Shown in pieces: positions 3,065 through 61,224 of a stretch of 64,000 bases of DNA. The DNA lies in the NCBI RefSeq assembly GCF_003334305.1, contig NZ_QOWS01000025.1; one strand, given 5' to 3'. The DNA comes from Escherichia coli (GTDB lineage: Bacteria; Pseudomonadota; Gammaproteobacteria; Enterobacterales; Enterobacteriaceae). The notes under the pieces were generated by a model. The model was not told the origin of the DNA. It did not search any database and saw nothing but the letters and a program-made list of their open reading frames with translations. Each line of letters starts with the position of its first letter. The stretch's first letter is position 1. A program made the position numbers and the translations under genes.

Positions 3065-3817
3065 TCAGCCTTTGCGGCTCTGCTCTTCATCCACCTGGCA
3101 GCTGTTGCCGGTGCATATGAAGTACAGCGGCATCCGCGCGCCGTAGTCGTTGATGTAAGTCAGCACCGGCACGCTGTCCATCTTCGCATTCAGCGGTGCG
3201 GAGGTTTTCGGCTCCATCATCAGCGGTGTGAATCCCGCCGGCGGGTTGCCGCCTTTTTTAGCGCTGGCGTTGCTGATGATCACGTAGTACGGCGTCGGGT
3301 TATTGACGGTGAAGTCCTGGCCGTTACGGATGAGCGTCACCTTATGCTGCCACGGACTTTTCATGCTGGTGTTCTCCAGCGCCTTCGGTCGCCAGAACAG
3401 TTTGATACGCGTCTGCAGCGCAATCTGCAGTGTGTTCGGTTTATTTGATTTCGGCGGAATTTCGCGCACGTTGAAATAGAACACGCTCTCGCGGTCGGCC
3501 GGCAGTTTGTTGATATCCGGCAGCCCCTGCACCTTCACCTGGCCGTTCATCATCGCATCGATGCGCTGCACTGGCGGAAGCACCGCAAGCGGCGAGCTGA
3601 TTTTGTTGCCCTTTGCATCCTCTATCCAGCTCTGCGCCAGATAAGGCAGTGTGGGATCGTTGTTGCGCAGCGTGACGCTGATGGACTTGTCGCTTTCGTT
3701 AAACACCAGCCGTGTCCTGTCGGGCGTCACCGAAGCGTGGCTGGAGAAACTGACCGCTGTCGCCAGCAGCGCCAGTGCCGGGACAACGATTTTTGCAGTG
3801 TTAGTCAGATTAAACAT
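3065..3817 (-). CDS. yfcS: periplasmic pilus chaperone (PapD-like) YfcS
   Basis: 250-aa ORF with signal peptide and chaperone-family sequence character; position between usher and minor subunits. Confidence 0.9.
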   Translation of the reverse strand: MFNLTNTAKIVVPALALLATAVSFSSHASVTPDRTRLVFNESDKSISVTLRNNDPTLPYLAQSWIEDAKGNKISSPLAVLPPVQRIDAMMNGQVKVQGLPDINKLPADRESVFYFNVREIPPKSNKPNTLQIALQTRIKLFWRPKALENTSMKSPWQHKVTLIRNGQDFTVNNPTPYYVIISNASAKKGGNPPAGFTPLMMEPKTSAPLNAKMDSVPVLTYINDYGARMPLYFICTGNSCQVDEEQSRKG

Positions 3818-19615: not shown

Positions 19616-20530
19616 CTATTCCAGTTCTTGTCGACATGGCAGCGCTGTCATTGCCCCTTTCGCCGTTACTGCAAGCGCTCCGCAACGTTGAGCGAGATCG
19701 ATAATTCGTCGCATTTCTCTCTCATCTGTAGATAATCCCGTAGAGGACAGACCTGTGAGTAACCCGGCAACGAACGCATCTCCCGCCCCCGTGCTATCGA
19801 CACAATTCACAGACATTCCAGCAAAATGGTGAACTTGTCCTCGATAACAGACCACCACACCTTCTGCACCTTTAGTCACCAACAGCATGGCGATCTCATA
19901 CTCTTTTGCCAGGGCGCATATATCCCGATCGTTCTGTGTTTTTCCACTGATAAGTCGCCATTCTTCTTCCGAGAGCTTGACGACATCCGCCAGTTGTAGC
20001 GCCTGCCGCAAACACAAGCGGAGCAAATGCTCGTCTTGCCATAGATCTTCACGAATATTAGGATCGAAGCTGACAAAACCTCCGGCATGCCGGATCGCCG
20101 TCATCGCAGTAAATGCGCTGGTACGCGAAGGCTCGGCAGACAACGCAATTGAACAGAGATGTAACCATTCGCCATGTCGCCAGCAGGGCAAGTCTGTCGT
20201 CTCTAAAAAAAGATCGGCACTGGGGCGGACCATAAACGTAAATGAACGTTCCCCTTGATCGTTCAGATCGACAAGCACCGTGGATGTCCGGTGCCATTCA
20301 TCTTGCTTCAGATACGTGATATCGACTCCCTCAGTTAGCAGCGTTCTTTGCATTAACGCACCAAAAGGATCATCCCCCACCCGACCTATAAACCCACTTG
20401 TTCCGCCTAATCTGGCGATTCCCACCGCAACGTTAGCTGGCGCGCCGCCAGGACAAGGCAGTAGCCGCCCGTCTGATTCTGGCAAGAGATCTACGACCGC
20501 ATCCCCTAAAACCCATACTTTGGCTGACAT
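19616..20530 (-). CDS. cscK: fructokinase CscK (PfkB/ribokinase family)
   Basis: 304-aa ORF with PfkB-family motifs (VLGDAVVD near N-terminus, DSTGAGDAF near C-terminus); upstream of cscB on the same strand. Confidence 0.93.
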   Translation of the reverse strand: MSAKVWVLGDAVVDLLPESDGRLLPCPGGAPANVAVGIARLGGTSGFIGRVGDDPFGALMQRTLLTEGVDITYLKQDEWHRTSTVLVDLNDQGERSFTFMVRPSADLFLETTDLPCWRHGEWLHLCSIALSAEPSRTSAFTAMTAIRHAGGFVSFDPNIREDLWQDEHLLRLCLRQALQLADVVKLSEEEWRLISGKTQNDRDICALAKEYEIAMLLVTKGAEGVVVCYRGQVHHFAGMSVNCVDSTGAGDAFVAGLLTGLSSTGLSTDEREMRRIIDLAQRCGALAVTAKGAMTALPCRQELE

Positions 20531-20636
20531 TTTTTTCCCTTAAATTCATCTGAGTTACGCATAGTGATAAACCTCTTTTTCGCAAAAATCGTCATGGATT
20601 TACTAAAACATGCATATTCGATCACAAAACGTCATA

Positions 20637-20648
20637 GTTAACGTTAAC
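20637..20648. promoter_or_regulatory. candidate CscR operator 1 (perfect palindrome GTTAACGTTAAC)
   Basis: 12-bp perfect palindrome in the divergent cscK/cscA intergenic region; repeated identically 64 bp downstream. Confidence 0.5.
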
Positions 20649-20651
20649 ATT

Positions 20652-20667
20652 TGTGATATTCATCGCA
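20652..20667. promoter_or_regulatory. CRP-like site between the two csc operators
   Basis: TGTGAtattcaTCGCA matches TGTGA-N6-TCACA in 9 of 10 positions. Confidence 0.3.
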
Positions 20668-20700
20668 TTTATGAAAGTAAGGGACTTTATTTTTATAAAA

Positions 20701-20712
20701 GTTAACGTTAAC
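20701..20712. promoter_or_regulatory. candidate CscR operator 2 (perfect palindrome GTTAACGTTAAC)
   Basis: Second identical copy about 30 bp upstream of the cscA start; AT-rich flanks. Confidence 0.5.
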
Positions 20713-20746
20713 AATTCACCAAATTTGCTTAACCAGGATGATTAAA

Positions 20747-22180
20747 ATGACGCAATCTCGATTGCATGCGACGCAAAACGCCCTAGCAAAACTTCATGAG
20801 CACCGGGGTAACACTTTCTATCCCCATTTTCACCTCGCGCCTCCTGCCGGGTGGATGAACGATCCAAACGGCCTGATCTGGTTTAACGATCGTTATCACG
20901 CGTTTTATCAACATCACCCGATGAGCGAACACTGGGGGCCAATGCACTGGGGACATGCCACCAGCGACGATATGATCCACTGGCAGCATGAGCCTATTGC
21001 GCTAGCGCCAGGAGACGATAATGACAAAGACGGGTGTTTTTCAGGTAGTGCTGTCGATGACAATGGTGTCCTCTCACTTATCTACACCGGACACGTCTGG
21101 CTCGATGGTGCAGGTAATGACGATGCAATTCGCGAAGTACAATGTCTGGCTACCAGTCGGGATGGTATTCATTTCGAGAAACAGGGTGTGATCCTCACTC
21201 CACCAGAAGGAATCATGCACTTCCGCGATCCTAAAGTGTGGCGTGAAGCCGACACATGGTGGATGGTAGTCGGGGCGAAAGATCCAGGCAACACGGGGCA
21301 GATCCTGCTTTATCGCGGCAGTTCATTGCGTGAATGGACCTTCGATCGCGTACTGGCCCACGCTGATGCGGGTGAAAGCTATATGTGGGAATGTCCGGAC
21401 TTTTTCAGCCTTGGCGATCAGCATTATCTGATGTTTTCCCCGCAGGGAATGAATGCCGAGGGATACAGTTACCGAAATCGCTTTCAAAGTGGCGTAATAC
21501 CCGGAATGTGGTCGCCAGGACGACTTTTTGCACAATCCGGGCATTTTACTGAACTTGATAACGGGCATGACTTTTATGCACCACAAAGCTTTTTAGCGAA
21601 GGATGGTCGGCGTATTGTTATCGGCTGGATGGATATGTGGGAATCGCCAATGCCCTCAAAACGTGAAGGATGGGCAGGCTGCATGACGCTGGCGCGCGAG
21701 CTATCAGAGAGCAATGGCAAACTTCTACAACGCCCGGTTCACGAAGCTGAGTCGTTACGCCAGCAGCATCAATCTGTCTCTCCCCGCACAATCAGCAATA
21801 AATATGTTTTGCAGGAAAACGCGCAAGCAGTTGAGATTCAGTTGCAGTGGGCGCTGAAGAACAGTGATGCCGAACATTACGGATTACAGCTCGGCACTGG
21901 AATGCGGCTGTATATTGATAACCAATCTGAGCGACTTGTTTTGTGGCGGTATTACCCACACGAGAATTTAGACGGCTACCGTAGTATTCCCCTCCCGCAG
22001 CGTGACACGCTCGCCCTAAGGATATTTATCGATACATCATCCGTGGAAGTATTTATTAACGACGGGGAAGCGGTGATGAGTAGTCGAATCTATCCGCAGC
22101 CAGAAGAACGGGAACTGTCGCTTTATGCCTCCCACGGAGTGGCTGTGCTGCAACATGGAGCACTCTGGCTACTGGGTTAA
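20747..22180 (+). CDS. cscA: sucrose-6-phosphate hydrolase / invertase CscA (GH32)
   Basis: GH32 motifs (WMNDPNG, FRDP, WECPD); ORF track starts at 20738, but the Met at 20747 gives the 477-aa form I recall for CscA (either start is possible). Confidence 0.93.
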   Translation: MTQSRLHATQNALAKLHEHRGNTFYPHFHLAPPAGWMNDPNGLIWFNDRYHAFYQHHPMSEHWGPMHWGHATSDDMIHWQHEPIALAPGDDNDKDGCFSGSAVDDNGVLSLIYTGHVWLDGAGNDDAIREVQCLATSRDGIHFEKQGVILTPPEGIMHFRDPKVWREADTWWMVVGAKDPGNTGQILLYRGSSLREWTFDRVLAHADAGESYMWECPDFFSLGDQHYLMFSPQGMNAEGYSYRNRFQSGVIPGMWSPGRLFAQSGHFTELDNGHDFYAPQSFLAKDGRRIVIGWMDMWESPMPSKREGWAGCMTLARELSESNGKLLQRPVHEAESLRQQHQSVSPRTISNKYVLQENAQAVEIQLQWALKNSDAEHYGLQLGTGMRLYIDNQSERLVLWRYYPHENLDGYRSIPLPQRDTLALRIFIDTSSVEVFINDGEAVMSSRIYPQPEERELSLYASHGVAVLQHGALWLLG

Positions 22181-22187
22181 CATAATA

Positions 22188-23183
22188 TCAGGTGGAACAA
22201 CGGATCAACAGCGGGCAAGGGATCCGCGTCACTCTTCCCCCTTCACGACCTTCAATAATATGCAATGCAGCTTCCCGCCCGATAATGTCATGTGGAAGCT
22301 GAATTGTGGTCAGCGGCGGTAAAAACAGATGCCCGACGCCAACCAGATTATCAAAGCCCATTACGGCGACATCCTGCGGGATACGTACCCCCTTCGCCAG
22401 GAGAACCTGATAAGCGACAAAGGCTGCGCGATCGTTACCACATATCAGAACATCAAAATCTGGTTTGCCCGGTTTGAAGTGGGCATTGAGTAAACTTGCG
22501 AGATCGGTGTAGTGATCATCACCTGTTGCCATGTGAAATTGTTTCACCTCAGCCAGATCTCGTCCAGCATCACGCCAGGCCTGCTCAAATCCCTGCCGAC
22601 GATACCCTGTTGCCAACGCACTTTCCGGTAGCCAGAAGCATAACGGTTGACGATAGCCCGCCGCGAGCAAATGCTGTGTTGATTCATATTGTGCAGTGTA
22701 ATCATCAGGGATATAACTGGGTAACGCTGGGTCATCCGCCACACAGTTCGCCAATACAATATTTTCACCATACAGAGACTCAGGCAGCGTGATATGTCGC
22801 AGCCCCATTGTAGTATAGATAATGCCATCCGGACGGTGGGCAAGCAGCTGACGTGCCGCGCGGGCAGCGTCATCTTCAGAAAAAATATTGATTAAAAAAC
22901 TATTCCAGCCGAACTCGCTGGCGGTTTGCTCAATGGCAAGCAGAATATCAACAGAGAAAGGAGTGGTAGCCGTGTCCTGCGCCAGCACGGCGAGAGTCGA
23001 CGGCTTACGTCCTTGAGCGCGCATCTTACGGGCGGAAAGATCAGGAACATAATTCAGGGTCTGGATTGCCTGCAATACGCGGTCACGCGTTGCAGGACGC
23101 ACAGATTCTGCATTATGCATCACCCGGGAGACTGTCATCATCGACACTCCCGCCAGGCGTGCGACATCCTTTAATGAAGCCAT
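22188..23183 (-). CDS. cscR: LacI-family sucrose operon repressor CscR
   Basis: Start moved to internal Met (MASLKDVARLAGVSMMTVSRV, an HTH LacI-type N-terminus), giving 331 aa; the 397-aa track ORF carries a non-coding 5' extension. Confidence 0.9.
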   Translation of the reverse strand: MASLKDVARLAGVSMMTVSRVMHNAESVRPATRDRVLQAIQTLNYVPDLSARKMRAQGRKPSTLAVLAQDTATTPFSVDILLAIEQTASEFGWNSFLINIFSEDDAARAARQLLAHRPDGIIYTTMGLRHITLPESLYGENIVLANCVADDPALPSYIPDDYTAQYESTQHLLAAGYRQPLCFWLPESALATGYRRQGFEQAWRDAGRDLAEVKQFHMATGDDHYTDLASLLNAHFKPGKPDFDVLICGNDRAAFVAYQVLLAKGVRIPQDVAVMGFDNLVGVGHLFLPPLTTIQLPHDIIGREAALHIIEGREGGRVTRIPCPLLIRCST

Positions 23184-23425
23184 ACCCAAGCCGTTTGCCG
23201 TAAAACGGGCACTGTAGCAGAAACAGACGTCACTGGCGAGATCCAACGATATTCTCAACGCCCTATCACCCAACACGGCAATACAATAAAAAATAACAAT
23301 AATTGCCGGATAATTGTACTCAATTCCGCCTCTGTTCTCGCCAACGAGTAACCATATAGGCAAGTAAGTAAAACATGCCAACTGGCATCGCCAACCTGGA
23401 GAAGAAAATATAAATATGGATCATT

Positions 23426-23644
23426 GTGCTGCCGCTGTATCCCGACATCAGCCCGGAAATTATTGCGATTGCTATCGGTTCAGGTGCAATTGGCTGCACG
23501 ATCGTTACGGACTCGCTTTTCTGGCTAGTGAAGCAATATTGCGGCGCTACGCTCAATGAAACATTTAAATACTATACGACAGCGACATTTATCGCTTCAG
23601 TCGTCGCTCTGGCGGGCACATTCCTGCTGTCATTTATCATCTAA
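23426..23644 (+). pseudogene. dsdX: 3' remnant of a GntP-family permease gene, most likely dsdX (D-serine transporter), truncated by the csc islet
   Basis: 72-codon frame ending 18 nt before dsdA with GntP-type C-terminal motifs (ISPEIIAIAIGSGAIG, DSLFWLVKQY); no matching N-terminal region or promoter present. Confidence 0.6.
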
Positions 23645-23661
23645 GCGCAAAGAGACGTACT

Positions 23662-24990
23662 ATGGAAAACGCTAAAATGAACTCGCTCATCGCCCAGTAT
23701 CCGTTGGTAAAGGAGCTGGTTGCTCTTAAAGAAACCACCTGGTTTAATCCTGGCACGACCTCATTGGCTGAAGGTTTACCTTATGTTGGCCTGACCGAAC
23801 AGGATGTTCAGGACGCCCATGCGCGCTTATCCCGTTTTGCACCCTATCTGGCAAAAGCATTTCCTGAAACTGCTGCCACTGGGGGGATTATTGAATCAGA
23901 ACTGGTTGCCATTCCAGCTATGCAAAAACGGCTGGAAAAAGAATATCAGCAACCGATCAGCGGGCAACTGTTACTGAAAAAAGATAGCCATTTGCCCATT
24001 TCCGGCTCCATAAAAGCACGCGGCGGGATTTATGAAGTCCTGGCACACGCAGAAAAACTGGCTCTGGAAGCGGGGTTGCTGACGCTTGATGATGACTACA
24101 GCAAACTGCTTTCTCCGGAGTTTAAACAGTTCTTTAGCCAATACAGCATTGCTGTGGGCTCAACCGGAAATCTGGGGTTATCAATCGGCATTATGAGCGC
24201 CCGCATTGGCTTTAAGGTGACAGTTCATATGTCTGCTGATGCCCGGGCATGGAAAAAAGCGAAACTGCGCAGCCATGGCGTTACGGTCGTGGAATATGAG
24301 CAAGATTATGGTGTTGCCGTCGAGGAAGGACGTAAAGCAGCGCAGTCTGACCCGAACTGTTTCTTTATTGATGACGAAAATTCCCGCACGTTGTTCCTTG
24401 GGTATTCCGTCGCTGGCCAGCGTCTTAAAGCGCAATTTGCCCAGCAAGGCCGTATCGTCGATGCTGATAACCCTCTGTTTGTCTATCTGCCGTGTGGTGT
24501 TGGCGGTGGTCCTGGTGGCGTCGCATTCGGGCTTAAACTGGCGTTTGGCGATCATGTTCACTGCTTTTTTGCCGAACCAACGCACTCCCCTTGTATGTTG
24601 TTAGGCGTCCATACAGGATTACACGATCAGATTTCTGTTCAGGATATTGGTATCGACAACCTTACCGCAGCGGATGGCCTTGCAGTTGGTCGCGCATCAG
24701 GCTTTGTCGGGCGGGCAATGGAGCGTCTGCTGGATGGCTTCTATACCCTTAGCGATCAAACCATGTATGACATGCTTGGCTGGCTGGCGCAGGAAGAAGG
24801 TATTCGTCTTGAACCTTCGGCACTGGCGGGTATGGCCGGACCTCAGCGCGTGTGTGCATCAGTAAGTTACCAACAGATGCACGGTTTCAGCGCAGAACAA
24901 CTGCGTAATACCACTCATCTGGTGTGGGCGACGGGAGGTGGAATGGTGCCGGAAGAAGAGATGAATCAATATCTGGCAAAAGGCCGTTAA
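23662..24990 (+). CDS. dsdA: D-serine dehydratase (D-serine ammonia-lyase), PLP-dependent
   Basis: 442-aa ORF ([31 protein letters not shown]) with PLP-lysine region (SGSIKARGG). Confidence 0.96.

Positions 24991-61148: not shown

Positions 61149-61224
<76 letters not shown>

Follow-up and report, generated by a model that had tools for sequence, protein, structure and literature searches.

An intact dsdA gene at the right-hand boundary of the csc island in Escherichia coli: a common replacement allele in which dsdA is probably transcribed only at a basal level

What drives the transcription of dsdA, the gene for D-serine ammonia-lyase, in a strain of E. coli that retains this gene next to neither its activator gene, dsdC, nor the promoter of dsdX? 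The question is raised by positions 23184-23661 of a 64-kb stretch of DNA (the entire stretch that was analyzed is called the window below). A preliminary description of this fragment considered the driver of dsdA to be unclear, but the question was answered between 2015 and 2020 in O157:H7 (PMC4366372, PMC7486766). We conclude, with a probability of roughly 85% for the explanation taken as a whole, that dsdA is here the orphaned distal gene of a dsdXA operon, that it is not inducible by D-serine, and that it probably receives basal transcription only. The anatomy of the locus, the lack of dsdC and of its operator, the frequency of the arrangement in the population, and the intactness and constraint of dsdA come from the present analysis; the low transcription, the phenotype and the route of reactivation rest on published work on O157:H7, where the junction is the same.

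The region begins with argW, the tRNA-Arg(CCU) gene at 17781-17855 on the plus strand (located by ARAGORN and by the annotation of the identical strain A7), a recombination hotspot that adjoins the csc island (PMC4366372, PMC11251922). It is followed by cscB, encoding the sucrose permease (annotated as an oligosaccharide MFS transporter; 18297-19544, minus strand), cscK, encoding fructokinase (annotated as an aminoimidazole riboside kinase; 19616-20530, minus strand), the invertase gene cscA (20747-22180, plus strand; 479.7 bits against TIGR01322), and cscR, which encodes the LacI-family repressor of the csc genes and is divergent from dsdA (22188-23183, minus strand). The promoter of cscA, cscAp, lies within the intergenic region at 20531-20746. 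The longest open reading frame of cscA starts at an ATG at 20738 (480 aa), as against the RefSeq start at 20747 (477 aa). The start codon of cscR is the complement of 23181-23183; thus, the intergenic stretch runs from 23184. A non-coding junction of 243 bp on the csc-island side (23184-23426, assigned to neither strand) leads to a 218-bp remnant of dsdX (23427-23644, plus strand), which comprises the last 72 codons and the stop and corresponds to positions 375-445 of the 445 in the NCBIfam DsdX profile. A spacer of 17 bp separates this remnant from dsdA (23662-24990, plus strand), and emrYK and evgAS are the genes that come after it. The 442-aa DsdA scores 813.6 bits against TIGR02035 (cutoff 368.25), with residues 9-438 covered, and it has the PLP-lysine motif SGSIKARGG. 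The preliminary description, which had called dsdA intact and had placed before it the 3' fragment of a GntP-family gene and about 240 bp of junction sequence, is borne out on both points.

It was also right about the absence of dsdC from the window. A tblastn search of the 64 kb with DsdC found no dsdC, and blastn returned no match there to dsdC, to the dsdC-dsdX intergenic region or to the first 1120 bp of dsdX; the promoter region of dsdX is likewise absent. DsdC, its 47-bp operator and an intact dsdX, which would mark a functional DsdC-activated dsdXA operon, are therefore all lacking. Instead, the space between argW and the dsd remnant is taken up by cscB, cscK, cscA and cscR, arranged and oriented as published for the allele in which csc replaces dsdCX. 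The sequence begins to align with an intact K-12-type dsdX at 23427 exactly; this breakpoint falls within dsdX, spares only the 3' end of that gene and coincides with the breakpoint of O157:H7. Of 5426 complete E. coli genomes, 5379 are matched by a 1-kb query that spans the junction. The junction itself is spanned in 2657 of the 5426 (49%), and the match in the remaining matching genomes covers only the part from 23427 onward, representing an intact dsdX-dsdA. In all 16 of the 16 diverse junction-bearing loci that were fetched, O157:H7 among them, the breakpoint is identical. Because the same breakpoint recurs in these 2657 genomes and 16 loci, the locus is a real rearrangement, and a chance pattern is excluded. 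Strain A7, which came from orangutan faeces, is identical to the window base for base over 1-61224.

The replacement of dsdC and most of dsdX by csc genes is an already known and very common allele that has been in the literature since 2002. The original descriptions of cscRAKB in place of dsdC and part of dsdX at argW are, as far as they are relayed by later papers, those of Jahreis (2002) and of Moritz and Welch (2006), for EDL933 and others (PMC4366372, PMC7486766, PMC11251922, PMC13054288). A triplex PCR that spans cscR to dsdA is in use for typing the locus (PMC13054288). Whether E. coli has csc or dsd at argW is an established marker of its niche, with sucrose use in the gut on one side and the use or tolerance of D-serine in the urinary tract on the other, and one more genome with the csc allele adds nothing new in this regard. 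The allele of O157:H7 EDL933/TUV93-0, E. coli W and EC3132 (argW-cscBKAR-'dsdX-dsdA) has the gene order, the intact dsdA and the lack of dsdC seen in the window, and its dsdX is cut at the same point, the 218th base from the end. O157:H7 and the window are 98.9% identical over 22900-23900; they differ by 9 substitutions in 23184-23661, none of which gives a better promoter match, and in background, the window being that of an A7-like commensal and O157:H7 a LEE-positive pathogen. Between the breakpoint and dsdA (218 bp of dsdX plus the 17-bp spacer), the dsdCXA locus of K-12 and CFT073 differs from the window at 1 base; the emrYK-evgAS context downstream is the same, and K-12-type DsdA is identical at 441 of 442 residues, the single substitution being D18E. 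Missing from the window but present in K-12 and CFT073 are dsdC, the 217 bp of intergenic DNA that carry the DsdC/CRP-dependent promoter of dsdX, and the first 1120 bp of dsdX.

These features lead us to view the fragment at 23184-23661 as the probable right-hand boundary of the csc (sucrose) island. In an ancient event, the island would have displaced dsdC, the DsdC operator together with the promoter of dsdX, and the initial 1120 bp of the latter gene. Induction of dsdA by D-serine would not be expected, because the activator and its binding site are both lost. The basal transcription would most likely originate within the ~115-235 bp of native DNA still present upstream of dsdA, from a weak secondary promoter and leader there, with a minor share possibly contributed by transcripts from cscAp that survive the 1.5 kb of untranslated sequence antisense to cscR. 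A secondary promoter of this kind, dsdAp, has been reported 115 bp upstream of the dsdA start (PMC7486766), and the leader downstream of it occupies 23547-23661 on the plus strand. Since dsdAp falls inside the dsdX fragment, this fragment should not be regarded as inert filler. A contrary finding is reported from 1995, when Norregaard-Madsen et al. re-analyzed the locus: DsdC was absolutely required for dsdA expression.

The experimental record on O157:H7 fits this picture of basal transcription. Cells of O157:H7 with the csc junction are sensitive to D-serine (PMC4366372, PMC7486766); strain TUV93-0 does not grow on D-serine and is rescued by plasmid-borne dsdA (PMC4366372). By RNA-seq, transcription of dsdA in O157:H7 is low, and O'Boyle et al. 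(2020) termed its product a silent enzyme (PMC7486766). The earlier suggestion that dsdA may be "effectively silent" in the window is thus in keeping with the phenotype, transcription and reporter data of O157:H7 (PMC7486766, PMC4366372). Spontaneous deletions of 1120 bp (LCV2) and 5637 bp (LCV10B) upstream of dsdA confer D-serine catabolism, as does a clean deletion of cscR, after which cscAp drives dsdA; dsdA rises about 33-fold in LCV2/LCV10B-type deletions or on clean deletion of cscR (PMC7486766). In GFP reporters, wild-type upstream fragments (cscAp to dsdA) gave 63-134 RFU; with cscAp or an upstream promoter brought near dsdA, the signal was 2001 RFU (LCV2) and 257 RFU (PMC7486766). Indeed, reactivation of dsdA in O157:H7 occurred only by deletions that put the gene under cscAp or another upstream promoter (PMC7486766). 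The architecture from which the D-serine-tolerant laboratory mutants LCV2 and LCV10B started is that of the window, which represents the un-rearranged state. Among commensal and Crohn's isolates, D-serine use strictly tracks the dsd allele, not the csc allele (PMC13054288). By analogy to O157:H7 and the commensal isolates, we would expect the present strain to be sucrose-positive, unable to use D-serine and sensitive to it, and high expression of dsdA would return only by a deletion that fuses the gene to cscAp or to another upstream promoter. Cryptic genes that are held silent and can be reactivated by mutation are familiar in E. coli from bgl, chb/cel and asc. Like these, dsdA is an intact catabolic gene that persists in the population although it is hardly expressed, and rearrangement in cis reactivates it; the silence of dsdA stems from the loss of its activator and main promoter to the island, whereas that of bgl, chb/cel and asc stems from H-NS silencing or repressor control.

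Other sources of dsdA transcription must be weighed against a basal supply from native upstream DNA. Sucrose could lift repression by CscR, such that transcripts from cscAp cross cscA and the antisense strand of cscR into dsdA, and DsdA would then be co-induced by sucrose. The preliminary description had dismissed read-through from cscR, correctly, as cscR is on the opposite strand, but cscA, which is on the same strand as dsdA, was overlooked. No plus-strand terminator-like site exists between the cscA stop at 22180 and 23609, the sole such site being at 23610-23629 and present in the normal K-12 dsdXA operon as well, and the read density of dsdA in the cscR deletion mutant follows that of cscA (PMC7486766). 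Transcription from cscAp could thus physically reach dsdA, as it does in the published deletion mutants. However, D-serine still inhibits O157:H7 that has sucrose as its only carbon source (PMC13293527), and the wild-type cscAp-to-dsdA reporter was low, albeit on a fragment that carries cscR and with no sucrose added (PMC7486766). Further, 1.5 kb of untranslated RNA that faces convergent cscR transcription would be a substrate for Rho termination. The low reporter and the D-serine sensitivity on sucrose indicate that read-through from cscAp is evidently insufficient in the intact arrangement, and we deem sucrose co-induction of DsdA unlikely. A fortuitous promoter in the 243-bp junction, as had been proposed, would have to give constitutive expression of dsdA at a physiologically meaningful level. 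The junction is AT-rich and holds several plus-strand sigma-70 matches of 8/12, which are the best in 23150-23700 (for example, CTGGCA-16-GAAAAT at 23382-23409), and a stretch at ~23404-23426 that contains AATATAAATA shows good conservation among E. coli and partial conservation in the diverged strain SCPM-O-B-8794. Against this, the proposal has gained no positive support from our searches: on the plus strand of 23184-23661 there are 0 sigma-70 sites with at least 9/12 matches (-35/-10, 16-18 bp spacing), fewer than the 1.6 expected from shuffled sequences, and no match of this quality occurs on either strand of 20400-23900. The junction also evolves at a roughly neutral rate within E. coli (pi 0.026, compared to a dS of 0.0225 for cscR and 0.039 for cscA) and differs by 20% from that of SCPM-O-B-8794. 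Deletions of 12 bp at 23246-23257 and of 13 bp at 23383-23395, found in 6 and 2 of the 16 fetched genomes, respectively, fit a lack of constraint, and O157:H7 with the same junction expresses dsdA at a low level (PMC7486766). A meaningful junction promoter is, in our judgment, very improbable.

Finally, DsdC from elsewhere in the genome could act on dsdA in trans, for instance from a second dsdCXA as in K1 strains. Some E. coli do possess two dsdCXA copies (PMC9659370), the 1-kb junction query finds up to 3 places per genome among the complete E. coli genomes, and Stephens et al. (2024) state that dsdC is often kept where csc is present (PMC11251922). Yet the 47-bp site that DsdC protects is in the dsdC-dsdX intergenic region (PMC9659370); this operator is part of the deleted DNA, and a trans-acting DsdC would thus find no binding site here. 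No dsdC was detectable by megablast on the chromosome of A7, where a chimeric query of evgS and K-12 dsdC found a single place, and none of the 28 junction-bearing genomes in a sample spread evenly over all genomes had a second dsd place. The scenario held up by the preliminary description as contrary to its view, a dsdC elsewhere together with a DsdC site in the fragment, accordingly does not apply: A7, with the same locus, has no dsdC, and the operator region is deleted. Activation by DsdC in trans is effectively refuted for this allele, and we assign it a negligible likelihood. The statement of Stephens et al. stands apart from our sample, in which neither A7 nor any of the 28 junction-bearing complete genomes has dsdC; it may concern other arrangements, or dsdA may have been intended instead of dsdC. 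A chimeric query of csc and dsdC gave a second place in 5 of 40 genomes that are identical over the csc/junction part. The second place in SCEC020022, one of these five, was considered as a possible dsdC and rejected, since the evgS-dsdC query yields a single place in that genome and the extra place is thus csc-related.

If basal transcription is all that dsdA receives, is the gene functionally dead? Purifying selection and a conserved leader argue against this view, and "silent" may be too strong a word. The gene is intact in all 17 of 17 diverse junction-bearing sequences (12 alleles), with a dN/dS of 0.076 that is comparable to the 0.039 of dsdCXA+ genomes and below the ~0.18 of cscR and cscA, although recombination with dsdCXA+ alleles could bring in variation that is already constrained, and one DsdA protein is common to both sets. 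In the dsdX remnant, variable sites at codon positions 1/2/3 number 5/2/5 in junction-bearing sequences as opposed to 1/0/10 in dsdCXA+ ones; judged by these substitutions, the remnant is a decaying pseudogene fragment.

Strain SCPM-O-B-8794, which is labelled E. coli but is deeply diverged, has the same csc/dsdX junction at 20% divergence. Its dsdA is intact at 442 aa, with 95% amino-acid identity to that of the window, a dS of 0.34 and a dN/dS of 0.067. A further 104 bp of its dsdX remnant have been lost (3626-3760 of its locus, L016, equivalent to window 23436-23539). In the 100 bp upstream of dsdA, there are 3 differences (3%) between the window and this strain, the sole deep comparator for the leader, whereas the junction differs by 20% and the third positions of dsdA by 21.5% (Fisher p ~1e-5 and 4e-6, respectively). 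These comparisons suggest that dsdA and its proximal cis element are still selected in spite of the loss of DsdC, and "silent" may mean low but useful. More specifically, dsdA could be kept by purifying selection along with a leader/promoter of ~100 bp conserved in the dsdX remnant, with low, DsdC-independent expression serving a fitness role such as basal detoxification of D-serine in the gut; we offer this as a tentative reading that is possible but on balance doubtful. The selective upkeep of dsdA and its leader in junction-bearing lineages may be the one residual point of this locus that is new. If confirmed, it would qualify the wording "non-functional dsdA" of the EHEC literature.

Several observations pertain to the leader. 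The 104-bp deletion in SCPM-O-B-8794 is flanked by TGC microhomology; the reported -115 promoter of dsdA loses its core to this deletion, yet the gene itself is still intact. At 23562-23661, 23 E. coli sequences (17 junction-bearing, 6 dsdCXA+) have only 3 variable positions, and the 58 bp nearest the start codon of dsdA have none. In dsdCXA+ genomes, most of this stretch is coding sequence of dsdX; there, 3 of 132 positions vary, compared to 8 of 103 in the preceding 103 bp, a trend that is not significant (p = 0.06). Folding of the leader RNA at 23547-23690 revealed no special structure (z = 0.13). No further genomes of the SCPM-O-B-8794 type were found among the complete E. coli genomes, where the best match was 90.9%.

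The csc side of the junction can be delimited by comparison with other bacteria. Homology of the csc region with Citrobacter amalonaticus ends at window 23224 and that with a cryptic Escherichia lineage at 23293; for the remaining ~130-200 bp of the junction, no relative could be detected, and no reading frame is conserved there. In two loci of C. amalonaticus (L018 and L019, 3923-8950), the csc cluster has 80-83% DNA identity to window 18241-23224 and adjoins ytfT/yjfF-like ABC sugar-permease genes, not dsdA; this insertion defines the boundaries of the csc island independently of E. coli. In Escherichia sp. MOD1-EC7003 (L017, 159-1546), the match to the window upstream of cscR extends for 110 bp only and gives way to an lpxP-like acyltransferase gene, and dsdA, emrYK and evgAS through yfdY are missing beside csc. 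The junction must hold the promoter and leader of cscR on the minus strand. Its minus strand also resembles a hydrophobic C-terminus, but the idea of a gene remnant was rejected, as no frame is conserved in a six-frame comparison with SCPM-O-B-8794, MOD1-EC7003, the two C. amalonaticus loci, dsdCXA loci and the remainder of the window. A search of 22100-23800 against Rfam at a permissive threshold found no family; a sub-threshold snoRNA was the only candidate and was taken as a chance hit.

Two minor features of the strain deserve mention. The 8-bp sequence CCGGATAA, the repeat that served in the published deletion LCV10B (PMC7486766), is present in the junction at 23306-23313. Its partner copy near yfdC is absent in this strain, and the exact LCV10B route of deletion is thus closed to it. 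The sole difference between the window and A7 across the whole 64 kb is in the copy number of tRNA-Ala(GGC): the window has one gene, at 61149-61224, where A7 has two tandem copies, a difference of 115 bp that probably reflects either recombination between the tandem copies or their collapse in assembly.
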